Origin: Eledone cirrhosa
Taxonomy: Eukaryota
NCBI GenBank assembly: GCA_964016885.1
Contig: OZ024762.1
Coordinates: 29,078,001-29,142,000, forward strand
DNA length: 64,000 nt
Direction: 5' to 3'
A program made the position numbers and the translations under genes. This document shows, piece after piece, positions 15,139-64,000 of this stretch. The notes under the pieces are model-generated. The model worked only from the letters and a program-made list of their open reading frames with translations. It made no database searches and was not told the DNA's origin. Every line of letters begins with the position of its first letter. The first letter of the stretch is position 1.

Positions 15139-16391
<1,253 letters not shown>

Positions 16392-27265: not shown

Positions 27266-27390
27266 CTGGGGATTTCGATTGTTAAATTTGTTTGTTTCAA
27301 TATTTTTACACGACTCTATGTAAAATCCCCGGCATGTGTCTTTGTATTGACCCCTTTTCTTGTGCGCCCTTGTGGAAAATATAGAAATAT

Positions 27391-27500
27391 ATCATCATCA
27401 TCACTTTACGTCTGCTTTTCCCTGCTTGCAAGGGTGGGACGGGAACTGATTCTGGCTTGATTTCTACAGCTGGATGCCCTTCTTAACACCAACCTCATTT
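27391..27500 (-). mobile_element. 3' terminus of an RTE-type LINE with (TGA)n tail
   Basis: Minus strand GAAGGGCATCCAGCTGTAGAAA...GAAAAGCAGACGTAAAGTGATGATGATGAT. Same motifs as 11948-12100 and the 140-bp unit. Confidence 0.8.
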
Positions 27501-27820
27501 ACAGTTAGTGCTGGGTGCTTTTTTGCCATGGCACCTCCACGACCACTTTGCAGTGAGTGCTGGGTGCTTTTTTGCCGTGGCACCTCCACGACCACTTTAC
27601 AGTGAGTGCTGGGTGCTTTTTTGCCATGGCACCTCCACGACCACTTTACAGTGAGTGCTGGGTGCTTTTTTGCCGTGGCACCTCCACGACCACTTTACAG
27701 TGAGTGCTGGGTGCTTTTTTGCCATGGCACCTCCACGACCACTTTACAGTGAGTGCTGGGTGCTTTTTTGCCGTGGCACCTCCACGACCACTTTACAGTG
27801 AGTGCTGGGTGCTTTTTTGC
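27498..27820. repeat. 49-bp tandem repeat (~6.5 copies, alternating GCCAT/GCCGT variants)
   Basis: Unit ACAGTGAGTGCTGGGTGCTTTTTTGCCRTGGCACCTCCACGACCACTTT, contiguous with the LINE 3' UTR. Confidence 0.93.
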
Positions 27821-30800
27821 CACCTCAGTCTTCTCTCCCACACACCACAACTTATCCCTCTTATACACAGTTTCTCTCTGAACACATCACATGTCCATAC
27901 CACCTCAGTCATCTCTCCCACACACCACAACTTATCCCTCTTATACACAGTTTCTCTCTCAACACATCACATGTCCATACCATCTCAATCTTCTCTCCCA
28001 CACACCACAACTTATCCCTCTTATACACAGTTAATCTCTCAACACATCACATGACCATACCACCTCAGTCATCTCTCTCACACACCACAACTTATCCCTC
28101 TTATACCCAGTTTCTCTCTCAACACATCACATGTCCATACCACCTCAGTCATCTCTCCCACACACCACAACTTATCCCACTAATACACAGTTTCTCTCTC
28201 AACACATCACATGTCCATTCCATCTCAGTCTTCTCTCCCACACACTACAACTTATCCCTCTGATACCCAGTTTCTCTCTCAACACATCACATGTCCATAC
28301 CATCTCAGTCTCCTCTCCCACACACTACAACTTATCCCTCTTATACACAGTTTCTCTCTCAACGCATCACATGTCCATACCACCTCAGTGATCTCTCCCA
28401 CACACCACAACTTATCCCTCTTATACACAGTTTCTCTCTCAACACATCACATATCCATACCACCTCAGTCTTCTCTCCCACACACCACAACTTATCCCTC
28501 TTATACACAGTTTCTCTCTCAACACATCACATGTCCATTCCATCTCAGTCTTTTCTCCCACACACCACAACTTATCCCTCTTATACCCAGTTTCTTTCTC
28601 AACACATCACATGTCCATACCACCTCAGTCATCTCTCCCACACACCACAACTTATCCCTCTTATACCCAGTTTCTCTCTCAACTCATCACATGTCCATAC
28701 CATCTCAGTCTTCTCTCCCACACACTACAACTTATCCCTCTTATACACAGTTTCTCTCTCAACGCATCACATGTCCATACCACCTCAGTCATCTCTCCCA
28801 CACACCACAACTTATCCCTCTTATACCCAGTTTCTCTCTCAACACATCACATGTCCATACCATCTCAGTCTTCTCTCCCACACACTACAACTTATCCCTC
28901 TTATACACAGTTTCTCTCTCAACGCATCACATGTCCATTCCATCTCAGTCTTCTCTCCCACACACTACAACTTATCCCTCTTATACACAGTTTCTCTCTC
29001 AACACATCACATGTCCATACCACCTCAGTGATCTCTCCCACACACCACAACTTATCCCTCTTATACACAGTTTCTCTCTCAACACATCACATATCCATAC
29101 CACCTCAGTCTTCTCTCCCACACACCACAACTTATCCCTCTTATACACAGTTTCTCTCTCAACACAAAATGTCCATACCATCTCAGTCATCTCTCTCACA
29201 CACTACGACTTATCCCTCTTATACACAGTTTCTCTCTCAACACATCACATGTCCATACCACCTCAGTCATCTCTCCCACACACCACAACTTAACCCTCTT
29301 ATACCCAGTTTCTCTCTCAACTCATCACATGTCCATACCATCTCAGTCTTCTCTCCCACACACTACAACTTATCCCTCTTATACACAGTTTCTCTCTCAA
29401 CACATCACATGTCCATACCACCTCAGTGATCTCTCCCACACACCACAACTTATCCCTCTTATACACAGTTTCTCTCTCAACACATCACATGTCCACAGCA
29501 TCTCAGTCATCTCTCTCACACACTACGACTTATCCCTCTTATACACAGTTTCTCTCTCAACACATCACATGTCCATTCCATCTCAGTCTTCTCTCCCACA
29601 CACCACAACTTATCCCTCTTATATCCAGTTTCTCTCTCAACACATCACATGTCCATACCACCTCAGTCTTCTCTCCCACACACCACAACTTATCCCTCTT
29701 ATACACAGTTTCTCTCTGAACACATCACATGTCCATACAACCTCAGTCATCTCTCCCACACACCACAACTTATCCCTCTTATACACAGTTTCTCTCTCAA
29801 CACATCACATGTCCATACCATCTCAATCTTCTCTCCCACACACCACAACTTATCCCTCTTATACACAGTTAATCTCTCAACACATCACATGACCATACCA
29901 CCTCAGTCATCTCTCTCACACACCACAACTTATCCCTCTTATACCCAGTTTCTCTCTCAACACATCACATGTCCATACCACCTCAGTCTTCTCTCCCACA
30001 CACCACAACTTATCCCTCTTATACCCAGTTTCTCTCTCAACACATCACATGTCCATACCATCCCAGTCTTCTCCTCCGCTCACTACAACTTATCCTTCTG
30101 ATACACAGTTTCTCTCCCACACACCACAACTTATCCCTCTTATACACCGTTTCTCTCTCAACACATCACATGTACATACCATCTTAGTCTTCTCTCGCAC
30201 AAACCACAATTTATCCCTCTTATACCCAGTTTCTCTCTCAACACATCACATGTCCATACCATCTCAGTCTTCTCTCCCACACATTACAACTTATGCCTCT
30301 TATACGCAGTTTCACACTCAACACATCACATGTCCATACCATCGCAGCCTTCTCTCCCACACACCACAACTTATCCCTCTTATACCCAGTTTCTCTCTCA
30401 ATACATCACATGTCCATACCATCGCAGCCTTCTCTTCCACACACCACAACTTATCCCTGTTATACACAGTTTCACACTCATCACATCACATGTCCATACC
30501 ATCGCAGCCTTCTCTCCCACACACCACAACTTATCCCTCTTATACCCAGTTTCTCTCTCAACATATCACATGTCCATACCATCTCAGTCTTCTCTCCCAC
30601 ACACTACAACTTACCAATCTGATACCCAGTTTCTCTCTCAACACATCACATGTCCATACCATCTCAGTCTTCTCTCCCACACACTACAACTTATCCCTCT
30701 TATACACAGTTTCTCTCTCAACACATCATATGTCCATACCATCTCAGTCTTCTCTCCCACACACCACAACTTCTCCCTCTTATACAGAGTTTCTCTCTCA

Positions 30801-33800
30801 ACACGTCACATGTCCATACCATCTCAGTCTTCTCTCCCACACACCACAACTTAACCCTCTTATACCCAGTTTCTCCCTCAACACATCACATGTCCATACC
30901 ATCTCAGTCTTCTCTCCCACACACTACAACTTATCCCTCTTATACACAGTTTCTCTCTCAACGCATCACATGTCCATTCCATCTCAGTTTTCTCTCCCAC
31001 ACACCACAATTTATCCCTCTTATACACAATTTCTCTCTCAACTCATCACATGTCCATACCATCTCAGTCTTCTCTCCCACACACTACAACTTATCCCTCT
31101 TATACACAGTTTCTCTCTCAACGCATCACATGTCCATTCCATCTCAGTCTTCTCTCCCACACACCACAACTTATCCCTCTTATACACAATTTCTCTCTCA
31201 ACTCATCACATGTCCATACCATCTCAGTCTTCTCTCCCACACACCACAATTTATCCCTCTTATACACAGTTTCTCTCTCAACACATCAAATGTCAATACC
31301 ATCTCAGTCTTCTCTCCCACACACCACAACTTATCCCTCTTATACACAGTTTCTCTCTCAACTCATCAAATGTCCATACCATCTCAGTCTTCTCTCCCAC
31401 ACACCACCACTTATCCCTCTTATACACAGTTTCTCTCTCAACACATCACATGTCCATACCATCTCAGTCTTCTCCCCCACACACCACAACTTATCCCTCT
31501 TATACACAGTTTCTCTCTCAACACATCACATGTCCATACCATCTCAGTCTTCTCTCCCACACACCACAACTTATCCCTCTTATACACAGTTTCTCTCTCA
31601 ATACATCACATGTCCATACTATCTCAGTTTTCTCTCCCACACACTACAACTTATCCCTCTTATACCCAGTTTCTCTCTCAACACATCACATGTCCTTACC
31701 ATCTCAGTGTCTTCTCCCACACACTACAACTTATCCCTCTTATACACAGTTTCTCTCTCAACACATCACATGTCCATACCATCTCAGTCTTCTCTCCCAC
31801 ACACCACAACTTATCCCTCTTATACACAGTTTCTCTCTCAATACATCACATGTCCATACCATCTCAGTCTTCTCTCCGACACACTACAACTTATCCCTCT
31901 TATACCCAGTTTCTCTCTCAACACATCACATGTCCATACCATCTCAGTGTCTTCTCCGACACACTACAACTTATCCCTCTTATACACAGTTTCTCTCTCA
32001 ACACATCACATGTCCATACCATCTCAGTCTTCTCTCCCACACACCACAACTTATCCCTCTTATACACAGTTTCTCTCTCAATACATCACATGTCCATACC
32101 ATCTCAGTCTTCTCTCCCACACACTACAACTTATCCCTCTTATACACAGTTTCTCTCTCAACACATCACATGTCCATACCATCTCAGTCTTCTCTCCCAC
32201 ACACCACAACTTATCCCTCTTATACACAGTTTCTCTCTCAATACATCACAAGTCCATACTATCTCAGTTTTCTCTCCCACACACGACAACTTATCCCTCT
32301 TATACACAGTTTCTCTCTCAACACATCACATGTCGATACCATCTCAGTCTTCTCTCCCACACACCACAACTTATCCCTCTTATACACAGTTTCTCTCTCA
32401 ATACATCACATGTCCATACCATCTCAGTCTTCTCTCCCACACACCACAACTTATCCCTCTTATACACAGTTTCTCTCTCAACACATCACATGTCCATACC
32501 ATCTCAGTCTTCTCTCCCACACACCACAATTTATCCCTCTTATACCCAGTTTCTCTCTCAACACATCACATGTCCATACCATCTCAGTGTCTTCTCCCAC
32601 ACACTACAACTTATCCCTCTTATACACAGTTTCTCTCTCAACACATCACATGTCCATACCATCTCAGTCTTCTCTCCCACACACCACAACTTATCCCTCT
32701 TATACACAGTTTCTCTCTCAACACATCACATGTCCATACCATCTCAGTCTTCTCTCCCAATCACTACAACTTATCCCTCTTATACACAGTTTCTCTCTCA
32801 ACACATCACATGTCCATACCATCTCAGTGTCTTCTCCCACACACTACAACTTATCCCTCTTATACACAGTTTCTCTCTCAACATATCACATGTCCATACC
32901 ATCTCAGTCTTCTCTCCCACACACCACAACTTATCCCTCTTATACACAGTTTCTCTCTCAATACATCACATGTCCATACCATCTCAGTCTTCTCTCCCAC
33001 ACACTACAACTTATCCCTCTTATACACAGTTTCTCTCTCAACACATCACATGTCCATACCATCTCAGTCTTCTCTCCCACACACCACAACTTATCCCTCT
33101 TATACAGTTTCTCTCTCAATACATCACATGTCCATACTATCTCAGTTTTCTCTCCCACACACGACAACTTATCCCTCTTATACCCAGTTTCTCTCTCAAC
33201 ACATCACATGTCCATACCATCTCAGTGTCTTCTCCCACACACTACAACTTATCCCTCTTATACACAGTTTCTCTCTCAACACATCACATGTCCATACCAT
33301 CTCAGTCTTCTCTCCCACACACCACAACTTATCCCTCTTATACACAGTTTCTCTCTCAACACATCACATGTCGATACCATCTCAGTCTTCTCTCCCAATC
33401 ACTACAACTTATCCCTCTTATACACAGTTAATCTCTCAACACATCACATGTCCATGCCATCTCAGTCTTCTCTCCCACTCACTACAACTTATCCCTCTTA
33501 TACACAGTTAATCTCTCAACACATCACATGTCCATACCATCTCAGTTTTCTCTCCCACTCACTACAACTTATCCCTCTTATACACAGTTTCTCTCTCAAC
33601 ACATCACATGTCCATACCATCTCAGTCTTCTCTCCCACACACCACAATTTATCCCTCTTATACACAGTTTCTCTCTCAACACATCAAATGTCCATACCAT
33701 CTCAGTCTTCTCTCCCACACACCACAACTTATCCCTCTTATACACAGTTTCTCTCTCAACTCATCAAATGTCCATACCATCTCAGTCTTCTCTCCCACAC

Positions 33801-36800
33801 ACCACCACTTATCCCTCTTATACACAGTTTCTCTCTCAACACATCACATGTCCATACCATCTCAGTCTTCTCCCCCACACACCACAACTTATCCCTCTTA
33901 TACACAGTTTCTCTCTCAACACATCAAATGTCCATACCATCTCAGTCTTCTCTCCCACACACCACAACTTATCCCTCTTATACACAGTTTCTCTCTCAAT
34001 ACATCACATGTCCATACTATCTCAGTTTTCTCTCCCACACACTACAACTTATCCCTCTTATACCCAGTTTCTCTCTCAACACATCACATGCCCATACCAT
34101 CTCAGTGTCTTCTCCCACACACTACAACTTATCCCTCTTATACACAGTTTCTCTCTCAATACATCACATGTCCATACCATCTCAGTCTTCTCTCCCACAC
34201 ACCACAACTTATCCCTCTTATACACAGTTTCTCTCTCAACACATCACATGTCCATACCATCTCAGTCTTCTCTCCCACACACCACAATTTATCCCTCTTA
34301 TACCCAGTTTCTCTCTCAACACATCACATGTCCATACCATCTCAGTGTCTTCTCCCACACACTACAACTTATCCCTCTTATACACAGTTTCTCTCTCAAC
34401 ACATCACATGTCCATACCATCTCAGTCTTCTCTCCCACACACCACAACTTATCCCTCTTATACACAGTTTCTCTCTCAATACATCACATGTCCATACCAT
34501 CTCAGTCTTCTCTCCGACACACTACAACTTATCCCTCTTATACCCAGTTTCTCTCTCAACACATCACATGTCCATACCATCTCAGTGTCTTCTCCCACAC
34601 ACTACAACTTATCCCTCTTATACACAGTTTCTCTCTCAACACATCACATGTCCATACCATCTCAGTCTTCTCTCCCACACACCACAATTTATCCCTCTTA
34701 TACACAGTTTCTCTCTCAATACATCACATGTCCATACCATCTCAGTCTTCTCTCCCACACACTACAACTTATCCCTCTTATACACAGTTTCTCTCTCAAC
34801 ACATCACATGTCCATACCATCTCAGTCTTCTCTCCCACACACCACAACTTATCCCTCTTATACACAGTTTCTCTCTCAATACATCACAAGTCCATACTAT
34901 CTCAGTTTTCTCTCCCACACACGACAACTTATCCCTCTTATACACAGTTTCTCTCTCAACACATCACATGTCGATACCATCTCAGTCTTCTCTCCCACAC
35001 ACCACAACTTATCCCTCTTATACACAGTTTCTCTCTCAATACATCACATGTCCATACCATCTCAGTCTTCTCTCCCACACACCACAACTTATCCCTCTTA
35101 TACACAGTTTCTCTCTCAACACATCACATGTCCATACCATCTCAGTCTTCTCTCCCACACACCACAATTTATCCCTCTTATACCCAGTTTCTCTCTCAAC
35201 ACATCACATGTCCATACCATCTCAGTGTCTTCTCCCACACACTACAACTTATCCCTCTTATACACAGTTTCTCTCTCAACACATCACATGTCCATACCAT
35301 CTCAGTCTTCTCTCCCACACACCACAACTTATCCCTCTTATACACAGTTTCTCTCTCAACACATCACATGTCCATACCATCTCAGTCTTCTCTCCCAATC
35401 ACTACAACTTATCCCTCTTATACACAGTTTCTCTCTCAACACATCACATGTCCATACCATCTCAGTGTCTTCTCCCACACACTACAACTTATCCCTCTTA
35501 TACACAGTTTCTCTCTCAACACATCACATGTCCATACCATCTCAGTCTTCTCTCCCACACACCACAACTTATCCCTCTTATACACAGTTTCTCTCTCAAT
35601 ACATCACATGTCCATACCATCTCAGTCTTCTCTCCCACACACTACAACTTATCCCTCTCATACACAGTTTCTCTCTCAACACATCACATGTCCATACCAT
35701 CTCAGTCTTCTCTCCCACACACCACAACTTATCCCTCTTATACAGTTTCTCTCTCAATACATCACATGTCCATACTATCTCAGTTTTCTCTCCCACACAC
35801 GACAACTTATCCCTCTTATACCCAGTTTCTCTCTCAACACATCACATGTCCATACCATCTCAGTGTCTTCTCCCACACACTACAACTTATCCCTCTTATA
35901 CACAGTTTCTCTCTCAACACATCACATGTCCATACCATCTCAGTCTTCTCTCCCACACACCACAACTTATCCCTCTTATACACAGTTTCTCTCTCAACAC
36001 ATCACATGTCCATACCATCTCAGTCTTCTCTCCCAATCACTACAACTTATCCCTCTTATACACAGTTAATCTCTCAACACATCACATGTCCATGCAATCT
36101 CAGTCTTCTCTCCCACTCACTACAACTTATCCCTCTTATACACAGTTAATCTCTCAACACATCACATGTCCATACCATCTCAGTTTTCTCTCCCACTCAC
36201 TACAACTTATCCCTCTTATACACAGTTTCTCTCTCAACACATCACATGTCCATACCATCTCAGTCTTCTCTCCCACACACCACAATTTATCCCTCTTATA
36301 CACAGTTTCTCTCTCAACACATCAAATGTCCATACCATCTCAGTCTTCTCTCCCACACACCACAACTTATCCCTCTTATACACAGTTTCTCTCTCAACTC
36401 ATCAAATGTCCATACCATCTCAGTCTTCTCTCCCACACACCACCACTTATCCCTCTTATACACAGTTTCTCTCTCAACACATCACATGTCCATACCATCT
36501 CAGTCTTCTCCCCCACACACCACAACTTATCCCTCTTATACACAGTTTCTCTCTCAACACATCAAATGTCCATACCATCTCAGTCTTCTCTCCCACACAC
36601 CACAACTTATCCCTCTTATACACAGTTTCTCTCTCAATACATCACATGTCCATACTATCTCAGTTTTCTCTCCCACACACTACAACTTATCCCTCTTATA
36701 CCCAGTTTCTCTCTCAACACATCACATGCCCATACCATCTCAGTGTCTTCTCCCACACACTACAACTTATCCCTCTTATACACAGTTTCTCTCTCAATAC

Positions 36801-39800
36801 ATCACATGTCCATACCATCTCAGTCTTCTCTCCCACACACCACAACTTATCCCTCTTATACACAGTTTCTCTCTCAACACATCACATGTCCATACCATCT
36901 CAGTCTTCTCTCCCACACACCACAATTTATCCCTCTTATACCCAGTTTCTCTCTCAACACATCACATGTCCATACCATCTCAGTGTCTTCTCCCACACAC
37001 TACAACTTATCCCTCTTATACACAGTTTCTCTCTCAACACATCACATGTCCATACCATCTCAGTCTTCTCTCCCACACACCACAACTTATCCCTCTTATA
37101 CACAGTTTCTCTCTCAATACATCACATGTCCATACCATCTCAGTCTTCTCTCCGACACACTACAACTTATCCCTCTTATACCCAGTTTCTCTCTCAACAC
37201 ATCACATGTCCATACCATCTCAGTGTCTTCTCCCACACACTACAACTTATCCCTCTTATACACAGTTTCTCTCTCAACACATCACATGTCCATACCATCT
37301 CAGTCTTCTCTCCCACACACCACAATTTATCCCTCTTATACACAGTTTCTCTCTCAATACATCACATGTCCATACCATCTCAGTCTTCTCTCCCACACAC
37401 TACAACTTATCCCTCTTATACACAGTTTCTCTCTCAACACATCACATGTCCATACCATCTCAGTCTTCTCTCCCACACACCACAACTTATCCCTCTTATA
37501 CACAGTTTCTCTCTCAATACATCACAAGTCCATACTATCTCAGTTTTCTCTCCCACACACGACAACTTATCCCTCTTATACACAGTTTCTCTCTCAACAC
37601 ATCACATGTCGATACCATCTCAGTCTTCTCTCCCATACACCACAACTTATCCCTCTTATACACAGTTTCTCTCTCAATACATCACATGTCCATACCATCT
37701 CAGTCTTCTCTCCCACACACCACAACTTATCCCTCTTATACACAGTTTCTCTCTCAACACATCACATGTCCATACCATCTCAGTCTTCTCTCCCACACAC
37801 CACAATTTATCCCTCTTATACCCAGTTTCTCTCTCAACACATCACATGTCCATACCATCTCAGTGTCTTCTCCCACACACTACAACTTATCCCTCTTATA
37901 CACAGTTTCTCTCTCAACACATCACATGTCCATACCATCTCAGTCTTCTCTCCCACACACCACAACTTATCCCTCTTATACACAGTTTCTCTCTCAACAC
38001 ATCACATGTCCATACCATCTCAGTCTTCTCTCCCAATCACTACAACTTATCCCTCTTATACACAGTTTCTCTCTCAACACATCACATGTCCATACCATCT
38101 CAGTGTCTTCTCCCACACACTACAACTTATCCCTCTTATACACAGTTTCTCTCTCAACACATCACATGTCCATACCATCTCAGTCTTCTCTCCCACACAC
38201 CACAACTTATCCCTCTTATACACAGTTTCTCTCTCAATACATCACATGTCCATACCATCTCAGTCTTCTCTCCCACACACTACAACTTATCCCTCTTATA
38301 CACAGTTTCTCTCTCAACACATCACATGTCCATACCATCTCAGTCTTCTCTCCCACACACCACAACTTATCCCTCTTATACAGTTTCTCTCTCAATACAT
38401 CACATGTCCATACTATCTCAGTTTTCTCTCCCACACACGACAACTTATCCCTCTTATACCCAGTTTCTCTCTCAACACATCACATGTCCATACCATCTCA
38501 GTGTCTTCTCCCACACACTACAACTTATCCCTCTTATACACAGTTTCTCTCTCAACACATCACATGTCCATACCATCTCAGTCTTCTCTCCCACACACCA
38601 CAACTTATCCCTCTTATACACAGTTTCTCTCTCAACACATCACATGTCGATACCATCTCAGTCTTCTCTCCCAATCACTACAACTTATCCCTCTTATACA
38701 CAGTTAATCTCTCAACACATCACATGTCCATGCAATCTCAGTCTTCTCTCCCACTCACTACAACTTATCCCTCTTATACACAGTTAATCTCTCAACACAT
38801 CACATGTCCATACCATCTCAGTTTTCTCTCCCACTCACTACAACTTATCCCTCTTATACACAGTTTCTCTCTCAACACATCACATGTCCATACCATCTCA
38901 GTCTTCTCTCCCACACACCACAATTTATCCCTCTTATACACAGTTTCTCTCTCAACACATCAAATGTCCATACCATCTCAGTCTTCTCTCCCACACACCA
39001 CAACTTATCCCTCTTATACACAGTTTCTCTCTCAACTCATCAAATGTCCATACCATCTCAGTCTTCTCTCCCACACACCACCACTTATCCCTCTTATACA
39101 CAGTTTCTCTCTCAACACATCACATGTCCATACCATCTCAGTCTTCTCCCCCACACACCACAACTTATCCCTCTTATACACAGTTTCTCTCTCAACACAT
39201 CACATGTCCATACCATCTCAGTCTTCTCTCCCACACACCACAACTTATCCCTCTTATACACAGTTTCTCTCTCAATACATCACATGTCCATACTATCTCA
39301 GTTTTCTCTCCCACACACTACAACTTATCCCTCTTATACCCAGTTTCTCTCTCAACACATCACATGTCCATACCATCTCAGTGTCTTCTCCCACACACTA
39401 CAACTTATCCCTCTTATACACAGTTTCTCTCTCAACACATCACATGTCCATACCATCTCAGTCTTCTCTCCCACACACCACAACGTATTCCTCTTATACA
39501 CAGTTTCTCTCTCAATACATCACATGTCCATACCATCTCAGTCTTCTCTCCGACACACTACAACTTATCCCTCTTATACCCAGTTTCTCTCTCAACACAT
39601 CACATGTCCATACCATCTCAGTGTCTTCTCCCACACACTACAACTTATCCCTCTTATACACAGTTTCTCTCTCAACACATCACATGTCCATACCATCTCA
39701 GTCTTCTCTCCCACACACCACAACTTATTCCTCTTATACACAGTTTCTCTCTCAATACATCACATGTCCATACCATCTCAGTCTTCTCTCCCACACACCA

Positions 39801-48800: not shown

Positions 48801-51800
48801 TGCAATCTCAGTCTTCTCTCCCACTCACTACAACTTATCCCTCTTATACACAGTTTCTCTCTCAACACATCACATGTCCATACCATCTCAGTCTTCTCTC
48901 CCACACACCACAATTTATCCCTCTTATACACAGTTTCTCTCTCAACACATCAAATGTCCATACCATCTCAGTCTTCTCTCCCACACACCACAACTTATCC
49001 CTCTTATACACAGTTTCTCTCTCAACTCATCAAATGTCCATACCATCTCAGTCTTCTCTCCCACACACCACCACTTATCCCTCTTATACACAGTTTCTCT
49101 CTCAACACATCACATGTCCATACCATCTCAGTCTTCTCTCCCACACACCACAATTTATCCCTCTTATACCCAGTTTCTCTCTCAACACATCACATGTCCA
49201 TACCATCTCAGTGTCTTCTCCCACACACTACAACTTATCCCTCTTATACACAGTTTCTCTCTCAACACATCACATGTCCATACCATCTCAGTCTTCTCTC
49301 CCACACACCACAACTTATCCCTCTTATACACAGTTTCTCTCTCAATACATCACATGTCCATACCATCTCAGTCTTCTCTCCGACACACTACAACTTATCC
49401 CTCTTATACCCAGTTTCTCTCTCAACACATCACATGTCCATACCATCTCAGTGTCTTCTCCCACACACTACAACTTATCCCTCTTATACACAGTTTCTCT
49501 CTCAACACATCACATGTCCATACCATCTCAGTCTTCTCTCCCACACACCACAATTTATCCCTCTTATACACAGTTTCTCTCTCAATACATCACATGTCCA
49601 TACCATCTCAGTCTTCTCTCCCACACACTACAACTTATCCCTCTTATACACAGTTTCTCTCTCAACACATCACATGTCCATACCATCTCAGTCTTCTCTC
49701 CCACACACCACAACTTATCCCTCTTATACACAGTTTCTCTCTCAATACATCACAAGTCCATACTATCTCAGTTTTCTCTCCCACACACGACAACTTATCC
49801 CTCTTATACACAGTTTCTCTCTCAACACATCACATGTCGATACCATCTCAGTCTTCTCTCCCACACACCACAACTTATCCCTCTTATACACAGTTTCTCT
49901 CTCAATACATCACATGTCCATACCATCTCAGTCTTCTCTCCCACACACCACAACTTATCCCTCTTATACACAGTTTCTCTCTCAACACATCACATGTCCA
50001 TACCATCTCAGTCTTCTCTCCCACACACCACAATTTATCCCTCTTATACCCAGTTTCTCTCTCAACACATCACATGTCCATACCATCTCAGTGTCTTCTC
50101 CCACACACTACAACTTATCCCTCTTATACACAGTTTCTCTCTCAACACATCACATGTCCATACCATCTCAGTCTTCTCTCCCACACACCACAACTTATCC
50201 CTCTTATACACAGTTTCTCTCTCAACACATCACATGTCCATACCATCTCAGTCTTCTCTCCCAATCACTACAACTTATCCCTCTTATACACAGTTTCTCT
50301 CTCAACACATCACATGTCCATACCATCTCAGTGTCTTCTCCCACACACTACAACTTATCCCTCTTATACACAGTTTCTCTCTCAACACATCACATGTCCA
50401 TACCATCTCAGTCTTCTCTCCCACACACCACAACTTATCCCTCTTATACACAGTTTCTCTCTCAATACATCACATGTCCATACCATCTCAGTCTTCTCTC
50501 CCACACACTACAACTTATCCCTCTTATACACAGTTTCTCTCTCAACACATCACATGTCCATACCATCTCAGTCTTCTCTCCCACACACCACAACTTATCC
50601 CTCTTATACAGTTTCTCTCTCAATACATCACATGTCCATACTATCTCAGTTTTCTCTCCCACACACGACAACTTATCCCTCTTATACCCAGTTTCTCTCT
50701 CAACACATCACATGTCCATACCATCTCAGTGTCTTCTCCCACACACTACAACTTATCCCTCTTATACACAGTTTCTCTCTCAACACATCACATGTCCATA
50801 CCATCTCAGTCTTCTCTCCCACACACCACAACTTATCCCTCTTATACACAGTTTCTCTCTCAACACATCACATGTCGATACCATCTCAGTCTTCTCTCCC
50901 AATCACTACAACTTATCCCTCTTATACACAGTTAATCTCTCAACACATCACATGTCCATGCAATCTCAGTCTTCTCTCCCACTCACTACAACTTATCCCT
51001 CTTATACACAGTTAATCTCTCAACACATCACATGTCCATACCATCTCAGTTTTCTCTCCCACTCACTACAACTTATCCCTCTTATACACAGTTTCTCTCT
51101 CAACACATCACATGTCCATACCATCTCAGTCTTCTCTCCCACACACCACAATTTATCCCTCTTATACACAGTTTCTCTCTCAACACATCAAATGTCCATA
51201 CCATCTCAGTCTTCTCTCCCACACACCACAACTTATCCCTCTTATACACAGTTTCTCTCTCAACTCATCAAATGTCCATACCATCTCAGTCTTCTCTCCC
51301 ACACACCACCACTTATCCCTCTTATACACAGTTTCTCTCTCAACACATCACATGTCCATACCATCTCAGTCTTCTCCCCCACACACCACAACTTATCCCT
51401 CTTATACACAGTTTCTCTCTCAACACATCACATGTCCATACCATCTCAGTCTTCTCTCCCACACACCACAACTTATCCCTCTTATACACAGTTTCTCTCT
51501 CAATACATCACATGTCCATACTATCTCAGTTTTCTCTCCCACACACTACAACTTATCCCTCTTATACCCAGTTTCTCTCTCAACACATCACATGTCCATA
51601 CCATCTCAGTGTCTTCTCCCACACACTACAACTTATCCCTCTTATACACAGTTTCTCTCTCAACACATCACATGTCCATACCATCTCAGTCTTCTCTCCC
51701 ACACACCACAACTTATTCCTCTTATACACAGTTTCTCTCTCAATACATCACATGTCCATACCATCTCAGTCTTCTCTCCGACACACTACAACTTATCCCT

Positions 51801-54800
51801 CTTATACCCAGTTTCTCTCTCAACACATCACATGTCCATACCATCTCAGTGTCTTCTCCCACACACTACAACTTATCCCTCTTATACACAGTTTCTCTCT
51901 CAACACATCACATGTCCATACCATCTCAGTCTTCTCTCACACACACCACAACTTATCCCTCTTATACACAGTTTCTCTCTCAATACATCACATGTCCATA
52001 CCATCTCAGTCTTCTCTCCCACACACTACAACTTATCCCTCTTATACACAGTTTCTCTCTCAACACATCACATGTCCATACCATCTCAGTCTTCTCTCCC
52101 ACACACCACAACTTATCCCTCTTATACACAGTTTCTCTCTCAACACATCACATGTCCATACCATCTCAGTCTTCTCTCCCAATCACTACAACTTATCCCT
52201 CTTATACACAGTTAATCTCTCAACACATCACATGTCCATGCCATCACAGTCTTCTCTCCCACTCACTACAACTTATCCCTCTTATACACAGTTTCTCTCT
52301 CAACACATCACATGTCCATACCATCTCAGTCTTCTCTCCCACACACCACAACTTATCCGTCTTATACCCAGTTTCTCCCTCAACACATCACATGTCCATA
52401 CCATCTCAGTCTTCTCTGCCACACACTACAACTTATCCCTCTTATACACAGTTTCTCTCTCAACGCATCACATGTCCATTCCATCTCAGTCTTCTCTCCC
52501 ACACACTACAACTTATCCCTCTTATACACAGTTTCTCTCTCAACACATCACATGTCCATTCCATCTCAGTCTTCTCTCCCACACACCACAACTTATCCCT
52601 CTTATACACAGTTAATCTCTTAACACATCACATGTCCATACCATCTCAGTCTTCTCTCCCACACACCACAATTTATCCCTCTTATACACAGTTAATCTCT
52701 TAACTCATCACATATCCATACCATCTCAGTCTTCTCTCCCACACACCACAACTTATCCCTCTTATACACAGTTTCTCTCTCAACACATCACATGTCCATA
52801 CCATCACAGTCTTCTCTCCCACACACTACAACTGATCCCTCTTATACACAGTTTCTCTCTCAACTCATCACATGTCCATACCATCTCAGTCTTCTCTCCC
52901 ACACACTACAACTTATCCCTCTTATACACAGTTTCTCTCTCAACACATCACATGTCCATACCATCTCAGTCTTCTCCCCCACACACCACAACTTATCCCT
53001 CTTATACACAGTTTCTCTCTCAACACATCACATGTCCATACCATCTCAGTCTTCTCTCCCACACACCACAACTTATCCCTCTTATACACAGTTTCTCTCT
53101 CAATACATCACATGTCCATACTATCTCAGTTTTCTCTCCCACACACTACAACTTATCCCTCTTATACCCAGTTTCTCTCTCAACACATCACATGTCCATA
53201 CCATCTCAGTGTCTTCTCCCACACACTACAACTTATCCCTCTTATACACAGTTTCTCTCTCAACACATCACATGTCCATACCATCTCAGTCTTCTCTCCC
53301 ACACACCACAACTTATCCCTCTTATACACAGTTTCTCTCTCAATACATCACAAGTCCATACTATCTCAGTTTTCTCTCCCACACACGACAACTTATCCCT
53401 CTTATACACAGTTTCTCTCTCAACACATCACATGTCGATACCATCTCAGTCTTCTCTCCCACACACCACAACTTATCCCTCTTATACACAGTTTCTCTCT
53501 CAATACATCACATGTCCATACCATCTCAGTCTTCTCTCCCACACACCACAACTTATCCCTCTTATACACAGTTTCTCTCTCAACACATCACATGTCCATA
53601 CCATCTCAGTCTTCTCTCCCACACACCACAATTTATCCCTCTTATACCCAGTTTCTCTCTCAACACATCACATGTCCATACCATCTCAGTGTCTTCTCCC
53701 ACACACTACAACTTATCCCTCTTATACACAGTTTCTCTCTCAACACATCACATGTCCATACCATCTCAGTCTTCTCTCCCACACACCACAACTTATCCCT
53801 CTTATACACAGTTTCTCTCTCAACACATCACATGTCCATACCATCTCAGTCTTCTCTCCCAATCACTACAACTTATCCCTCTTATACACAGTTTCTCTCT
53901 CAACACATCACATGTCCATACCATCTCAGTGTCTTCTCCCACACACTACAACTTATCCCTCTTATACACAGTTTCTCTCTCAACACATCACATGTCCATA
54001 CCATCTCAGTCTTCTCTCCCACACACCACAACTTATCCCTCTTATACACAGTTTCTCTCTCAATACATCACATGTCCATACCATCTCAGTCTTCTCTCCC
54101 ACACACTACAACTTATCCCTCTTATACACAGTTTCTCTCTCAACACATCACATGTCCATACCATCTCAGTCTTCTCTCCCACACACCACAACTTATCCCT
54201 CTTATACAGTTTCTCTCTCAATACATCACATGTCCATACTATCTCAGTTTTCTCTCCCACACACGACAACTTATCCCTCTTATACCCAGTTTCTCTCTCA
54301 ACACATCACATGTCCATACCATCTCAGTGTCTTCTCCCACACACTACAACTTATCCCTCTTATACACAGTTTCTCTCTCAACACATCACATGTCCATACC
54401 ATCTCAGTCTTCTCTCCCACACACCACAACTTATCCCTCTTATACACAGTTTCTCTCTCAACACATCACATGTCGATACCATCTCAGTCTTCTCTCCCAA
54501 TCACTACAACTTATCCCTCTTATACACAGTTAATCTCTCAACACATCACATGTCCATGCAATCTCAGTCTTCTCTCCCACTCACTACAACTTATCCCTCT
54601 TATACACAGTTTCTCTCTCAACACATCACATGTCCATACCATCTCAGTCTTCTCTCCCACACACCACAATTTATCCCTCTTATACACAGTTTCTCTCTCA
54701 ACACATCAAATGTCCATACCATCTCAGTCTTCTCTCCCACACACCACAACTTATCCCTCTTATACACAGTTTCTCTCTCAACTCATCAAATGTCCATACC

Positions 54801-57800
54801 ATCTCAGTCTTCTCTCCCACACACCACCACTTATCCCTCTTATACACAGTTTCTCTCTCAACACATCACATGTCCATACCATCTCAGTCTTCTCTCCCAC
54901 ACACCACAATTTATCCCTCTTATACCCAGTTTCTCTCTCAACACATCACATGTCCATACCATCTCAGTGTCTTCTCCCACACACTACAACTTATCCCTCT
55001 TATACACAGTTTCTCTCTCAACACATCACATGTCCATACCATCTCAGTCTTCTCTCCCACACACCACAACTTATCCCTCTTATACACAGTTTCTCTCTCA
55101 ATACATCACATGTCCATACCATCTCAGTCTTCTCTCCGACACACTACAACTTATCCCTCTTATACCCAGTTTCTCTCTCAACACATCACATGTCCATACC
55201 ATCTCAGTGTCTTCTCCCACACACTACAACTTATCCCTCTTATACACAGTTTCTCTCTCAACACATCACATGTCCATACCATCTCAGTCTTCTCTCCCAC
55301 ACACCACAATTTATCCCTCTTATACACAGTTTCTCTCTCAATACATCACATGTCCATACCATCTCAGTCTTCTCTCCCACACACTACAACTTATCCCTCT
55401 TATACACAGTTTCTCTCTCAACACATCACATGTCCATACCATCTCAGTCTTCTCTCCCACACACCACAACTTATCCCTCTTATACACAGTTTCTCTCTCA
55501 ATACATCACAAGTCCATACTATCTCAGTTTTCTCTCCCACACACGACAACTTATCCCTCTTATACACAGTTTCTCTCTCAACACATCACATGTCGATACC
55601 ATCTCAGTCTTCTCTCCCACACACCACAACTTATCCCTCTTATACACAGTTTCTCTCTCAATACATCACATGTCCATACCATCTCAGTCTTCTCTCCCAC
55701 ACACCACAACTTATCCCTCTTATACACAGTTTCTCTCTCAACACATCACATGTCCATACCATCTCAGTCTTCTCTCCCACACACCACAATTTATCCCTCT
55801 TATACCCAGTTTCTCTCTCAACACATCACATGTCCATACCATCTCAGTGTCTTCTCCCACACACTACAACTTATCCCTCTTATACACAGTTTCTCTCTCA
55901 ACACATCACATGTCCATACCATCTCAGTCTTCTCTCCCACACACCACAACTTATCCCTCTTATACACAGTTTCTCTCTCAACACATCACATGTCCATACC
56001 ATCTCAGTCTTCTCTCCCAATCACTACAACTTATCCCTCTTATACACAGTTTCTCTCTCAACACATCACATGTCCATACCATCTCAGTGTCTTCTCCCAC
56101 ACACTACAACTTATCCCTCTTATACACAGTTTCTCTCTCAACACATCACATGTCCATACCATCTCAGTCTTCTCTCCCACACACCACAACTTATCCCTCT
56201 TATACACAGTTTCTCTCTCAATACATCACATGTCCATACCATCTCAGTCTTCTCTCCCACACACTACAACTTATCCCTCTTATACACAGTTTCTCTCTCA
56301 ACACATCACATGTCCATACCATCTCAGTCTTCTCTCCCACACACCACAACTTATCCCTCTTATACAGTTTCTCTCTCAATACATCACATGTCCATACTAT
56401 CTCAGTTTTCTCTCCCACACACGACAACTTATCCCTCTTATACCCAGTTTCTCTCTCAACACATCACATGTCCATACCATCTCAGTGTCTTCTCCCACAC
56501 ACTACAACTTATCCCTCTTATACACAGTTTCTCTCTCAACACATCACATGTCCATACCATCTCAGTCTTCTCTCCCACACACCACAACTTATCCCTCTTA
56601 TACACAGTTTCTCTCTCAACACATCACATGTCGATACCATCTCAGTCTTCTCTCCCAATCACTACAACTTATCCCTCTTATACACAGTTAATCTCTCAAC
56701 ACATCACATGTCCATGCAATCTCAGTCTTCTCTCCCACTCACTACAACTTATCCCTCTTATACACAGTTAATCTCTCAACACATCACATGTCCATACCAT
56801 CTCAGTTTTCTCTCCCACTCACTACAACTTATCCCTCTTATACACAGTTTCTCTCTCAACACATCACATGTCCATACCATCTCAGTCTTCTCTCCCACAC
56901 ACCACAATTTATCCCTCTTATACACAGTTTCTCTCTCAACACATCAAATGTCCATACCATCTCAGTCTTCTCTCCCACACACCACAACTTATCCCTCTTA
57001 TACACAGTTTCTCTCTCAACTCATCAAATGTCCATACCATCTCAGTCTTCTCTCCCACACACCACCACTTATCCCTCTTATACACAGTTTCTCTCTCAAC
57101 ACATCACATGTCCATACCATCTCAGTCTTCTCCCCCACACACCACAACTTATCCCTCTTATACACAGTTTCTCTCTCAACACATCACATGTCCATACCAT
57201 CTCAGTCTTCTCTCCCACACACCACAACTTATCCCTCTTATACACAGTTTCTCTCTCAATACATCACATGTCCATACTATCTCAGTTTTCTCTCCCACAC
57301 ACTACAACTTATCCCTCTTATACCCAGTTTCTCTCTCAACACATCACATGTCCATACCATCTCAGTGTCTTCTCCCACACACTACAACTTATCCCTCTTA
57401 TACACAGTTTCTCTCTCAACACATCACATGTCCATACCATCTCAGTCTTCTCTCCCACACACCACAACTTATTCCTCTTATACACAGTTTCTCTCTCAAT
57501 ACATCACATGTCCATACCATCTCAGTCTTCTCTCCGACACACTACAACTTATCCCTCTTATACCCAGTTTCTCTCTCAACACATCACATGTCCATACCAT
57601 CTCAGTGTCTTCTCCCACACACTACAACTTATCCCTCTTATACACAGTTTCTCTCTCAACACATCACATGTCCATACCATCTCAGTCTTCTCTCCCACAC
57701 ACCACAACTTATCCCTCTTATACACAGTTTCTCTCTCAATACATCACATGTCCATACCATCTCAGTCTTCTCTCCCACACACTACAACTTATCCCTCTTA

Positions 57801-60800
57801 TACACAGTTTCTCTCTCAACACATCACATGTCCATACCATCTCAGTCTTCTCTCCCACACACCACAACTTATCCCTCTTATACACAGTTTCTCTCTCAAC
57901 ATATCACATGTCCATACCATCTCAGTCTTCTCTCCCAATCACTACAACTTATCCCTCTTATACACAGTTAATCTCTCAACACATCACATGTCCATGCCAT
58001 CACAGTCTTCTCTCCCACTCACTACAACTTATCCCTCTTATACACAGTTAATCTCTCAACATATCACATGTCCATACCATCTCAGTTTTCTCTCCCACTC
58101 ACTACAACTTATCCCTCTTATACACAGTTTCTCTCTCAACACATCACATGTCCATACCATCTCAGTCTTCTCTCCCACACACCACAACTTATCCGTCTTA
58201 TACCCAGTTTCTCCCTCAACACATCACATGTCCATACCATCTCAGTCTTCTCTGCCACACACTACAACTTATCCCTCTTATACACAGTTTCTCTCTCAAC
58301 GCATCACATGTCCATTCCATCTCAGTCTTCTCTCCCACACACTACAACTTATCCCTCTTATACACAGTTTCTCTCTCAACACATCACATGTCCATTCCAT
58401 CTCAGTCTTCTCTCCCACACACCACAACTTATCCCTCTTATACACAGTTAATCTCTTAACACATCACATGTCCATACCATCTCAGTCTTCTCTCCCACAC
58501 ACCACAATTTATCCCTCTTATACACAGTTAATCTCTTAACTCATCACATATCCATACCATCTCAGTCTTCTCTCCCACACACCACAACTTATCCCTCTTA
58601 TACACAGTTTCTCTCTCAACACATCACATGTCCATACCATCACAGTCTTCTCTCCCACACACTACAACTGATCCCTCTTATACACAGTTTCTCTCTCAAC
58701 TCATCACATGTCCATACCATCTCAGTCTTCTCTCCCACACACCACAACTTATCCCTCTTATACACAGTTTCTCTCTCAACACATCACATGTCCATACCAT
58801 CTCAGTCTTCTCCCCCACACACCACAACTTATCCCTCTTATACACAGTTTCTCTCTCAACACATCACATGTCCATACCATCTCAGTCTTCTCTCCCACAC
58901 ACCACAACTTATCCCTCTTATACACAGTTTCTCTCTCAATACATCACATGTCCATACTATCTCAGTTTTCTCTCCCACACACTACAACTTATCCCTCTTA
59001 TACCCAGTTTCTCTCTCAACACATCACATGTCCATACCATCTCAGTGTCTTCTCCCACACACTACAACTTATCCCTCTTATACACAGTTTCTCTCTCAAC
59101 ACATCACATGTCCATACCATCTCAGTCTTCTCTCCCACACACCACAACTTATCCCTCTTATACACAGTTTCTCTCTCAATACATCACATGTCCATACCAT
59201 CTCAGTCTTCTCTCCGACACACTACAACTTATCCCTCTTATACCCAGTTTCTCTCTCAACACATCACATGTCCATACCATCTCAGTGTCTTCTCCCACAC
59301 ACTACAACTTATCCCTCTTATACACAGTTTCTCTCTCAACACATCACATGTCCATACCATCTCAGTCTTCTCTCCCACACACCACAACTTATCCCTCTTA
59401 TACACAGTTTCTCTCTCAATACATCACATGTCCATACCATCTCAGTCTTCTCTCCCACACACCACAACTTATCCCTCTTATACACAGTTTCTCTCTCAAT
59501 ACATCACATGTCCATACTATCTCAGTTTTCTCTCCCACACACGACAACTTATCCCTCTTATACACAGTTTCTCTCTCAACACATCACATGTCCATACCAT
59601 CTCAGTCTTCTCTCCCACACACCACAACTTATCCCTCTTATACACAGTTTCTCTCTCAATACATCACATGTCCATACCATCTCAGTCTTCTCTCCCACAC
59701 ACCACAACTTATCCCTCTTATACACAGTTTCTCTCTCAACACATCACATGTCCATACCATCTCAGTCTTCTCTCCCACACACCACAATTTATCCCTCTTA
59801 TACCCAGTTTCTCTCTCAACACATCACATGTCCATACCATCTCAGTGTCTTCTCCCACACACTACAACTTATCCCTCTTATACACAGTTTCTCTCTCAAC
59901 ACATCACATGTCCATACCATCTCAGTCTTCTCTCCCACACACCACAACTTATCCCTCTTATACACAGTTTCTCTCTCAACACATCACATGTCCATACCAT
60001 CTCAGTCTTCTCTCCCAATCACTACAACTTATCCCTCTTATACACAGTTTCTCTCTCAACACATCACATGTCCATACCATCTCAGTGTCTTCTCCCACAC
60101 ACTACAACTTATCCCTCTTATACACAGTTTCTCTCTCAACACATCACATGTCCATACCATCTCAGTCTTCTCTCCCACACACCACAACTTATCCCTCTTA
60201 TACACAGTTTCTCTCTCAATACATCACATGTCCATACCATCTCAGTCTTCTCTCCCACACACTACAACTTATCCCTCTTATACACAGTTTCTCTCTCAAC
60301 ACATCACATGTCCATACCATCTCAGTCTTCTCTCCCACACACCACAACTTATCCCTCTTATACAGTTTCTCTCTCAATACATCACATGTCCATACTATCT
60401 CAGTTTTCTCTCCCACACACGACAACTTATCCCTCTTATACCCAGTTTCTCTCTCAACACATCACATGTCCATACCATCTCAGTGTCTTCTCCCACACAC
60501 TACAACTTATCCCTCTTATACACAGTTTCTCTCTCAACACATCACATGTCCATACCATCTCAGTCTTCTCTCCCACACACCACAACTTATCCCTCTTATA
60601 CACAGTTTCTCTCTCAACACATCACATGTCGATACCATCTCAGTCTTCTCTCCCAATCACTACAACTTATCCCTCTTATACACAGTTAATCTCTCAACAC
60701 ATCACATGTCCATGCCATCTCAGTCTTCTCTCCCACTCACTACAACTTATCCCTCTTATACACAGTTAATCTCTCAACACATCACATGTCCATACCATCT

Positions 60801-63800
60801 CAGTTTTCTCTCCCACTCACTACAACTTATCCCTCTTATACACAGTTTCTCTCTCAACACATCACATGTCCATACCATCTCAGTCTTCTCTCCCACACAC
60901 CACAATTTATCCCTCTTATACACAGTTTCTCTCTCAACACATCAAATGTCCATACCATCTCAGTCTTCTCTCCCACACACCACAACTTATCCCTCTTATA
61001 CACAGTTTCTCTCTCAACTCATCAAATGTCCATACCATCTCAGTCTTCTCTCCCACACACCACCACTTATCCCTCTTATACACAGTTAATCTCTCAACAC
61101 ATCACATGTCCATACCATCTCAGTCTTCTCCCCCACACACCACAACTTATCCCTCTTATACACAGTTTCTCTCTCAACACATCACATGTCCATACCATCT
61201 CAGTCTTCTCTCCCACACACCACAATTTATCCCTCTTATACACAGTTTCTCTCTCAATACATAACATGTCCATACTATCTCAGTTTTCTCTCCCACACAC
61301 GACAACTTATCCCTCTTATACACAGTTTCTCTCTCAACACATCACATGTCCATACCATCTCAGTCTTCTCTCCCACACACCACAACTTATCCCTCTTATA
61401 CACAGTTTCTCTCTCAATACATCACATGTCCATACCATCTCAGTCTTCTCTCCCACACACCACAACTTATCCCTCTTATACACAGTTTCTCTCTCAACAC
61501 ATCACATGTCCATACCATCTCAGTCTTCTCTCCCACACACCACAATTTATCCCTCTTATACCCAGTTTCTCTCTCAACACATCACATGTCCATACCATCT
61601 CAGTGTCTTCTCCCACACACTACAACTTATCCCTCTTATACACAGTTTCTCTCTCAACACATCACATGTCCATACCATCTCAGTCTTCTCTCCCACACAC
61701 CACAACTTATCCCTCTTATACACAGTTTCTCTCTCAACACATCACATGTCCATACCATCTCAGTCTTCTCTCCCAATCACTACAACTTATCCCTCTTATA
61801 CACAGTTTCTCTCTCAACACATCACATGTCCATACCATCTCAGTGTCTTCTCCCACACACTACAACTTATCCCTCTTATACACAGTTTCTCTCTCAACAC
61901 ATCACATGTCCATACCATCTCAGTCTTCTCTCCCACACACCACAACTTATCCCTCTTATACACAGTTTCTCTCTCAATACATCACATGTCCATACCATCT
62001 CAGTCTTCTCTCCCACACACTACAACTTATCCCTCTTATACACAGTTTCTCTCTCAACACATCACATGTCCATACCATCTCAGTCTTCTCTCCCACACAC
62101 CACAACTTATCCCTCTTATACAGTTTCTCTCTCAATACATCACATGTCCATACTATCTCAGTTTTCTCTCCCACACACGACAACTTATCCCTCTTATACC
62201 CAGTTTCTCTCTCAACACATCACATGTCCATACCATCTCAGTGTCTTCTCCCACACACTACAACTTATCCCTCTTATACACAGTTTCTCTCTCAACACAT
62301 CACATGTCCATACCATCTCAGTCTTCTCTCCCACACACCACAACTTATCCCTCTTATACACAGTTTCTCTCTCAACACATCACATGTCGATACTATCTCA
62401 GTCTTCTCTCCCAATCACTACAACTTATCCCTCTTATACACAGTTAATCTCTCAACACATCACATGTCCATGCCATCTCAGTCTTCTCTCCCACTCACTA
62501 CAACTTATCCCTCTTATACACAGTTAATCTCTCAACACATCACATGTCCATACCATCTCAGTTTTCTCTCCCACTCACTACAACTTATCCCTCTTATACA
62601 CAGTTTCTCTCTCAACACATCACATGTCCATACCATCTCAGTCTTCTCTCCCACACACCACAATTTATCCCTCTTATACACAGTTTCTCTCTCAACACAT
62701 CAAATGTCCATACCATCTCAGTCTTCTCTCCCACACACCACAACTTATCCCTCTTATACACAGTTTCTCTCTCAACTCATCAAATGTCCATACCATCTCA
62801 GTCTTCTCTCCCACACACCACCACTTATCCCTCTTATACACAGTTAATCTCTCAACACATCACATGTCCATACCATCTCAGTCTTCTCCCCCACACACCA
62901 CAACTTATCCCTCTTATACACAGTTTCTCTCTCAACACATCACATGTCCATACCATCTCAGTCTTCTCTCCCACACACCACAACTTATCCCTCTTATACA
63001 CAGTTTCTCTCTCAATACATCACATGTCCATACTATCTCAGTTTTCTCTCCCACACACTACAACTTATCCCTCTTATACCCAGTTTCTCTCTCAACACAT
63101 CACATGTCCATACCATCTCAGTGTCTTCTCCCACACACTACAACTTATCCCTCTTATACACAGTTTCTCTCTTAACACATCACATGTCCATACCATCTCA
63201 GTCTTCTCTCCCACACACCACAACTTATCCCTCTTATACACAGTTTCTCTCTCAATACATCACATGTCCATACCATCTCAGTCTTCTCTCCGACACACTA
63301 CAACTTATCCCTCTTATACCCAGTTTCTCTCTCAACACATCACATGTCCATACCATCTCAGTGTCTTCTCCCACACACTACAACTTATCCCTCTTATACA
63401 CAGTTTCTCTCTCAACACATCACATGTCCATACCATCTCAGTCTTCTCTCCCACACACTACAACTTATCCCTCTTATACACAGTTTCTCTCTCAACACAT
63501 CACATGTCCATACCATCTCAGTCTTCTCTCCCACACACCACAACTTATCCCTCTTATACACAGTTTCTCTCTCAATACATAACATGTCCATACTATCTCA
63601 GTTTTCTCTCCCACACACGACAACTTATCCCTCTTATACACAGTTTCTCTCTCAACACATCACATGTCCATACCATCTCAGTCTTCTCTCCCACACACCA
63701 CAACTTATCCCTCTTATACACAGTTTCTCTCTCAATACATCACATGTCCATACCATCTCAGTCTTCTCTCCCACACACCACAACTTATCCCTCTTATACA

Positions 63801-64000
63801 CAGTTTCTCTCTCAACACATCACATGTCCATACCATCTCAGTGTCTTCTCCCACACACTACAACTTATCCCTCTTATACACAGTTTCTCTCTCAACACAT
63901 CACATGTCCATACCATCTCAGTCTTCTCTCCCACACACCACAACTTATCCCTCTTATACACAGTTTCTCTCTCAACACATCACATGTCCATACCATCTCA
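27820..64000. repeat. 80-bp satellite array (~450 monomers, runs off window end), LINE-ORF-derived, with higher-order repeats
   Basis: Unit CATCTCAGTCTTCTCTCCCACACACCACAACTTATCCCTCTTATACACAGTTTCTCTCTCAACACATCACATGTCCATAC. Minus strand encodes VLREKLCIRGISCSVWERRLRWYGHVM. Confidence 0.98.

Follow-up and report, generated by a model that had tools for sequence, protein, structure and literature searches.

An 80-bp LINE coding segment that forms a 173-kb satellite and short arrays at many loci in the Eledone cirrhosa genome

Introduction

The closest described systems are satellites that carry open reading frame 2 (ORF2) sequence of long interspersed nuclear elements (LINEs): chicken HinfI/SCR1, from CR1, and Phodopus PROsat and seal Pvc20, both from L1, as set out in an excerpt of PMC9659126, which also states that non-coding origins prevail among satellites derived from transposable elements. 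The present study concerns an 80-bp satellite of Eledone cirrhosa that starts at position 27820 of a 64,000-nucleotide stretch of DNA (hereafter the window; C23:29,078,001-29,142,000 of the 3.0-Gb genome, C23 being contig OZ024762.1 of assembly GCA_964016885.1), and whose unit is a segment of the coding region of a LINE that appears to be of RTE type. Like HinfI, PROsat and Pvc20 as excerpted, the C23 array is a tandem repeat homologous to the coding frame of a non-LTR (long terminal repeat) retrotransposon. HinfI is described there as partial ORF2 and PROsat as a small L1 region only, whereas the C23 unit is wholly a LINE segment and reaches 100% identity with a young family; and unlike HinfI and PROsat, as that excerpt presents them, the E. 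cirrhosa unit coexists in single, short and giant states at hundreds of loci.

Other satellites have grown from repeats internal to an element, among them the Ogre 3' untranslated region (UTR) repeat PisTR-A, the central repeats of Helitron/DINE elements and oyster Helentron arrays (PMC9659126, PMC10048060, both in excerpt). There, as here, short arrays lie in dispersed elements and a few become long satellites. In the excerpted accounts, however, the repeat is built into the element and moved by transposition, whereas the element considered here is single-unit (5,352 copies) and its tandem state depends on chromosome location. In Drosophila, a Rsp-like satellite has spread into 1.688 clusters (PMC7403614, in excerpt); dispersed repeats likewise serve as landing sites, and microhomology and unequal exchange move and expand the satellite, but the landing sites in E. 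cirrhosa are LINE copies that also supply the unit. With subscription journals and Repbase/Dfam entries outside our coverage, we found no description of this satellite (the excerpted parts of PMC13282606 and PMC9115989 do not mention it) and no report of one coding segment that tandemises in the same register across hundreds of single-unit element copies with chromosome bias and replicate giant arrays. Satellites derived from LINE reading frames are already known; the replicated birth series is what appears new.

The C23 array and its parent LINE

Tandem Repeats Finder reports an 80-bp array from position 27820 to the end of the window, where 435 of the spacings between 452 anchors are exactly 80 and the 91 distinct monomers fall close to a consensus (mean 2.6 differences per monomer). 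The original prediction of an array of more than 36 kb is real but understated: the full array occupies C23:29,105,820-29,278,714, about 173 kb and 2,130 units, far beyond the window, with no N gaps in the 264 kb read around it and a single break, caused by a 2.1-kb insertion. It contains higher-order blocks, with a 78-bp variant at intervals and identity greatest between units 33 apart; the scored unit lengths of 75 and 85 bp are probably due to false anchors. Its commonest private variant occurs 104 times, every time inside the array, and a DNA search with the array sequence returned only the C23 array among the best 150 of 182 matches. In length, head-to-tail order and local homogenisation the array is thus a satellite. 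The predicted minus-strand monomer peptide was reproduced as VLREKLCIRGISC[G/S]VWERRLRWYGHVM; 80 bp not being divisible by three, the tandem run has stops in all frames. Among 2,024 units scored, 1,637 are of a B type and 387 of an A type, corresponding to LINE subfamilies; the two are interleaved in blocks beyond the window, and the units within the window are all B-type. The inserted element (C23:29,212,280-29,214,375) has identical terminal repeats of about 365 bp and a target duplication of 4-5 bp, with no long reading frame seen, and looks like a very recent non-autonomous LTR element.

That the unit derives from a LINE coding region is evident at the DNA level. Near-full-length copies of the parent family on C1 are 97% identical among themselves and carry a single ORF of 1,021 amino acids with Exo_endo_phos, RVT_1 and PHD finger domains (the domain scan covered this ORF; upstream sense-strand frames overlap low-complexity UTR or flank). 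The unit lies around codon 924 of about 1,021, and the end of the ORF directly precedes a (TGA)n tail. Sixty-eight of the 2,024 scored units are identical to the segment of a young subfamily, so the predicted coding origin was right. The parent proposed with it, a LINE fragment at about 20641-20721, was the wrong one: the common monomers differ from that fragment at 24-27 of 80 bases, versus 6-10 of 80 for a single-unit copy of a sister family (one copy, locus L094). The parent itself is probably RTE-type, judging from its architecture, in which a short tandem-repeat tail follows right after the ORF, and from an RRLRWxGHV motif, both of which we take to be marks of RTE. No clade name was attached to any of its 120 listed homologues, and its relatives in the PDB were L1 and R2 only. 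Contigs from two other organisms cover the LINE segment, and one of these records runs 20 bases past a monomer junction, below the bridging threshold. Among the records listed as carrying the sequence, none is of RNA. Young near-full-length copies at three loci (L301, L303 and L304) have intact ORFs with the PHD finger placed after the reverse transcriptase; those at L303 and L304 form a local 16-kb duplication. The C23 array is, in sum, non-coding satellite DNA from one 80-bp segment of an ORF of this LINE.

The same junction in dispersed LINE copies

The tail-to-head junction between units is not confined to C23. It has 5,767 exact matches in the genome, of which 1,023 lie in the C23 array. 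Twenty junction loci, drawn from the first 100 matches listed, proved to be small arrays of 2-25 units inside LINE copies, with the ORF continuing downstream in 19 and kept upstream in 18. A pattern consisting of the junction, one unit and the LINE continuation identified 279 array ends, and the matching single-unit pattern 5,352 LINE copies.

The duplicated copies are not one lineage but are scattered across subfamilies. On a tree of the 3' flanks of 94 copies (39 duplicated and 55 single, with two of the single copies belonging to another family), the duplicated state requires 25 changes, against a mean of 29.6 after shuffling, and no bootstrap tree accommodates it with a single change. The 3' flank of one duplicated copy matches those of four single-unit copies exactly, some two-unit copies are identical or nearly so to the young single-unit LINE, and two-unit copies with identical units occur. 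In 26 of 37 small arrays the units share variants that are not common in single-unit copies, which argues that growth is local. Arrays less than 1 Mb apart share such variants more often than others (6 of 12 pairs versus 68 of 313; permutation p 0.009).

A search with an A-type array as query led to a second giant array, C28:136,297,664-136,459,308, which spans 162 kb with one 3.8-kb interruption and lies 40 kb from the contig end. All but two of its 1,535 units are A-type (1,533), and it has one haplotype in common with the C23 array. It starts inside a LINE copy with the upstream ORF attached; its start is an in-place expansion of that copy.

Sister LINE families have formed satellites of their own. 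A 43-bp satellite lies on C2 at 400.914-400.962 Mb, in three pieces, and a 90-bp satellite on C28 was seen at 135.80 and 135.90 Mb, in two 2-kb samples 100 kb apart; the 90-bp unit keeps its reading frame except for one stop. Both end at or just past the same GHVM-type codons (CATGTGATG). Other breakpoints in related LINE ORFs gave rise to 139- and 142-bp arrays. A separate in-frame duplication of 96 bp, from an RLRLAGH motif in the ORF of another LINE family, is present at 19863-20068 of the window and recurs on C25 (L269:1249-1433).

The contigs of this genome fall into four giant chromosomes of 379-443 Mb, three of 103-136 Mb and many of 22-94 Mb, and tandem-repeat load differs sharply between the classes. 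Tandem LINE copies are found almost only on small chromosomes and chromosome ends. With pattern matches listed in contig order, none of the 279 array ends falls on the giant chromosomes C1-C4 (1,617 Mb, 54% of the genome), where about 114 would be expected if the single-copy density of C1 (100 single-unit copies in C1:0-74 Mb) held across all four. C25 carries 50 of the array ends within its first 10.3 Mb, and C20 carries 15. The tandem share of copies is about 15% on C25:0-10 Mb, with single copies at their upper bound, versus less than 3% on C1:0-74 Mb. In forty 10-kb stretches sampled at regular steps on C25-C27 (400 kb), complex tandem repeats make up 15-29% of the sequence; one of about six copies of the family in these stretches is tandem, and there are 2 exact single-unit matches. 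Arrays with an 84-bp period, of C2H2 zinc-finger type, occur at 15357-16402 of the window and at loci on C25 and C27. C2H2 linker motifs number 35 in 170 kb of C25 (11-17 Mb) and C27; the remaining 230 kb of the sample and 91 kb of C1 loci contain none.

Tandemisation is concentrated in this segment. When words from the LINE were searched for as two occurrences separated by a gap, the word from the unit gave 7,334 matches, a downstream word near the tail 19, at 8 loci and with differing breakpoints, and an upstream word 0. At the left boundary, CATG(A/G) is found in 23 of the 31 duplicated copies that could be scored, versus 7 of 43 such single copies (8 duplicated and 12 single copies being unscorable). 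Its CATGG form gives a gapped match of 10/11 to the right boundary, a feature confounded with age and location. The 3' breakpoint falls in the loop of a 6-bp hairpin of about -3 kcal/mol; the last kilobase has two others of this class, and the hairpin is offered as a lead only.

Mechanism of duplication

We consider it probable, if well short of assured, that the segment is duplicated after the LINE has inserted, at weak microhomology, and that the arrays then grow by local unequal exchange with some exchange between loci, all within a compartment prone to tandem repeats. That duplication follows insertion is argued by the absence of array ends from C1-C4 despite the single-unit copies on C1, together with the array-specific variants. 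Slipped or repair-driven misalignment of the weak repeats CATG(G/A)ATGTG and CATGTGATGCG would duplicate the segment, possibly with help from the hairpin at the 3' breakpoint. Unequal exchange would then lengthen each array and homogenise it locally. Through their homologous LINE flanks, arrays may also exchange units with other loci by ectopic conversion, and this would help to account for the single shared register and the mixed arrays; the evidence for such exchange is modest. A few arrays near chromosome ends would finally grow into satellites and become joined to the repeats beside them. All of this can be explained without invoking a function.

Several observations weigh against this account. 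The search that defined the small arrays selects one register, and other registers exist. The flank tree is poorly resolved, with 4 of 86 branches well supported, and these force at least 4 changes. Three of the six sharing pairs of nearby arrays are one C7 cluster with a variant found in many arrays, and A and B units are mixed in only 2 of the 37 small arrays. At the boundary, the CATG(A/G) enrichment is confounded with subfamily age and chromosome, most single copies coming from C1, and in a young LINE copy the boundary repeat is not among the 25 best ungapped 12-mer repeats of the last kilobase; with microhomology this weak, microhomology alone does not explain the hotspot. As to location, a looser pattern did return one array on C1, of 5 units and 1.5 Mb from the chromosome end, among matches listed that do not reach as far as C3 or C4; the 2% of complex tandem repeats in 30 C1 loci comes from LINE-centred loci, not a random sample; and the single-copy density of C25 is calculated from 1 exact match in 200 kb.

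The main rival, which we regard as unlikely though deserving of serious attention, holds that the junction arose once or a few times and spread to hundreds of LINE copies mainly by ectopic gene conversion through their shared flanks. One register at 279 or more loci, where the control segment has unique breakpoints, is what such spread would produce, as are the weak microhomology, the variants shared by neighbouring arrays, the occurrence of mixed arrays and the clustering of array ends on C20:9-13 Mb and C25. Against this, 35 of the 37 small arrays keep the two unit types unmixed, and some two-unit copies match the young single-unit LINE exactly or nearly so. Conversion from one origin also cannot explain why the duplications of sister families end at or just after the same codons.

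We find it improbable that the duplication is made during retrotransposition, whether by slippage of the reverse transcriptase at the hairpin or through master elements that carry it. Such a process would suit the fixed register, the small hairpin at the breakpoint and the two-unit copies with identical units, but it predicts duplicated copies wherever the LINE inserts, whereas none of the 279 array ends falls on C1-C4; selective loss from the giant chromosomes may have occurred. The duplicated copies do not form a clade, and since an 80-bp duplication shifts the reading frame, a master would need help in trans. The segment that makes up the C23 array likewise probably became tandem after insertion.

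Flanks of the C23 array

The 49-bp repeat, GAAGGGCATCC motif and (TGA)n tail that were predicted beside the array are present, within 27391-27822 (Table 1), and had been taken for the 3' end of the LINE to which the array was still attached. They belong instead to a short interspersed nuclear element (SINE). In genuine LINE copies the ORF runs directly into the tail, without a 49-bp repeat, and the counterpart of the motif lies in the LINE 5' UTR, about 55-110 bp upstream of the ORF (SINE copies are 79-80% identical to it over 53-56 bp; alignment score 49, versus a maximum of 30 in 300 shuffles). An order of ORF, 5' UTR and tail is impossible in a collinear LINE, so the neighbour of the array is not a LINE 3' end. 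In SINEs built from RTE 5' and 3' parts, by contrast, the order 5' UTR to tail is normal (PMC5786205, in excerpt). The best genome matches to 27380-27900 span the 49-bp repeat, motif and tail, and among those listed most have a tRNA-like head upstream and none has the 80-bp unit. Two intact copies (locus L019) scored 28.1 and 32.1 bits with the Rfam tRNA model, whose gathering threshold is 29; ARAGORN found no tRNA in 4 loci. Judged from its sequence, the proximal neighbour of the array is the truncated 3' half of a tRNA-headed SINE with an RTE-derived body and tail.

Table 1. Coordinates of features in the window
Feature	Position	Strand	Remarks
Homologous single segment in a more distant LINE family	20639..20718	(+)	24-27/80 differences; relative, not parent
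34-bp satellite, within the same duplicated block as the flank below	23959..27266	(.)	Tandem Repeats Finder and C27 comparison
Flank common to at least 3 C27 loci with intact SINE	27267..27390	(.)	In segmental duplication block 26047-27821
SINE 3' tail common with LINE, ending in (TGA)n	27391..27443	(-)	94% over 63 bp
SINE body with GAAGGGCATCC motif	27471..27522	(-)	79% over 53 bp to parent LINE 5' UTR, E 3e-6
49-bp variable number tandem repeat (VNTR), 6.6 units, inside tRNA-headed SINE	27498..27819	(-)	Unit homologous to LINE 5' UTR
Rearrangement junction, satellite unit cut mid-unit and joined to SINE 49-bp repeat	27820..27822	(.)	2-3 shared bases; C27 carries the intact donor allele
80-bp satellite, proximal 36 kb of 173-kb array	27820..64000	(-)	Unit = segment of the ORF of a LINE, probably RTE-type

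The SINE in the window has lost its head. At three loci on C27 this insertion is found with its head intact and the 3' flank unchanged, two of these loci having been traced into the 34-bp satellite, and the segmental duplication is 95% identical over 1,776 bp to one C27 locus; no 80-bp unit was found in six 10-kb stretches near the C27 SINE loci. Position 27820 is therefore a rearrangement junction. A CACCTC microhomology had been proposed there, but a join at that sequence would keep 5 more SINE bases than are present. On the array side, the LINE ORF lacks about 200 bp that would lie downstream of the unit. At its distal end the array passes into a 45-bp satellite, the two sharing a short run of bases at the join. 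The intact C27 insertion, this distal join and the mixture of two subfamilies together indicate that both array ends are rearranged, and neither side retains collinear LINE flank. The C23 array has likely been detached from its LINE flanks by later rearrangement.

It is accordingly very improbable that one LINE copy at C23 expanded in place and keeps its own 3' end, as first predicted. Array and tail do share a strand, and the tail has 94% identity with that of the LINE, but the intact SINE on C27, the 5' UTR origin of the motif and the lost ORF leave no such attachment, and the distal end is another satellite, while the same junction recurs at 279 or more other loci. Expansion in place thus fails at C23 and holds elsewhere, in 19 of the 20 small arrays examined and at the start of the C28 array. 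Attachment to a LINE 3' end is refuted; the array may still have begun in a nearby LINE copy whose flanks were lost. That the large arrays or their junctions are assembly artefacts is scarcely credible, for although no short-read contig among the matches listed bridges the 27820 junction and both of its sides are high-copy repeats, the higher-order blocks are ordered, the private variant is confined to the C23 array, the gap-free sequence contains an LTR insertion with its target-site duplication, and the small arrays have unique flanks.

Neighbouring repeats

The SINE has the architecture described in an excerpt of PMC5786205 for SINEs composed of a tRNA head, CORE, RTE 5' UTR and RTE 3' end, including Ceph-SINEs: a tRNA-like head, a piece of RTE 5' UTR and an RTE tail, to which it adds its own 49-bp VNTR. 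Two motif searches of the supplement of that paper, seen in part, gave 0 matches to the 5' UTR motif of the SINE, and the bodies of SepiaSINE and OegopSINE differ from it by eye, unaligned. Its identity with a Ceph-SINE family is thus only a candidate one, with the architecture in common. The 49-bp copy number is 0-2 units in 16 of 16 C1 copies and 11-20 in 3 of 45 on C25-C27, which runs in the same direction as the chromosome contrast but is too slight to carry weight.

Element-derived satellites follow one another along this end of C23. The 45-bp satellite that adjoins the array extends over C23:29,278,705-29,589,137 (about 310 kb, read partly and sampled between). The repeated unit is the head of a different tRNA-type SINE, and at the far end the satellite runs into the rest of that SINE, which is 91% identical to window 19137-19330; the satellite is apparently an in-place expansion. 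Arrays of 127, 80, 140 and 111 bp, SINE-derived by appearance, occupy window positions 1-9709, 10974-11606 and 21078-21597 and C23:29.62-29.80 Mb, the 80-bp one matching the 3' part of a SINE. The 34-bp satellite lies in opposite orientations (22411-23483 and 23959-27266) around a 500-bp spacer.

Discussion

The first tandemisation of a sequence and its growth to a satellite are usually inferred from one old end product. In E. cirrhosa three stages coexist: the ancestor, as more than 5,000 single-unit copies of which some retain intact ORFs; the intermediates, as arrays of 2-25 units at no fewer than 279 loci; and the end products, as two independent arrays of 173 and 162 kb. How the rates of birth, growth and exchange vary with boundary sequence, with age and with position on the chromosomes is therefore measurable. 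The difference between the giant chromosomes and the small ones points to a mutational regime that acts across a compartment, and the C2H2 zinc-finger arrays found in the same compartment, in the samples taken, suggest a link to gene-family expansion.

A broader reading, which we put forward tentatively and would not yet assume, is that the short RTE coding stretch that ends at a small hairpin past the GHVM codons is an intrinsic satellite seed. It would tandemise independently in many copies and in several LINE families, almost only in a compartment, the small chromosomes and chromosome ends, that tandemises all kinds of DNA, and the LINE copies, serving across the genome as both seeds and landing sites, would make up a network from which at least four large satellites have come. 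If so, satellite birth has been replicated hundreds of times in this genome while the single-unit ancestor is still young and intact, so that the effects of sequence and of location could be separated.

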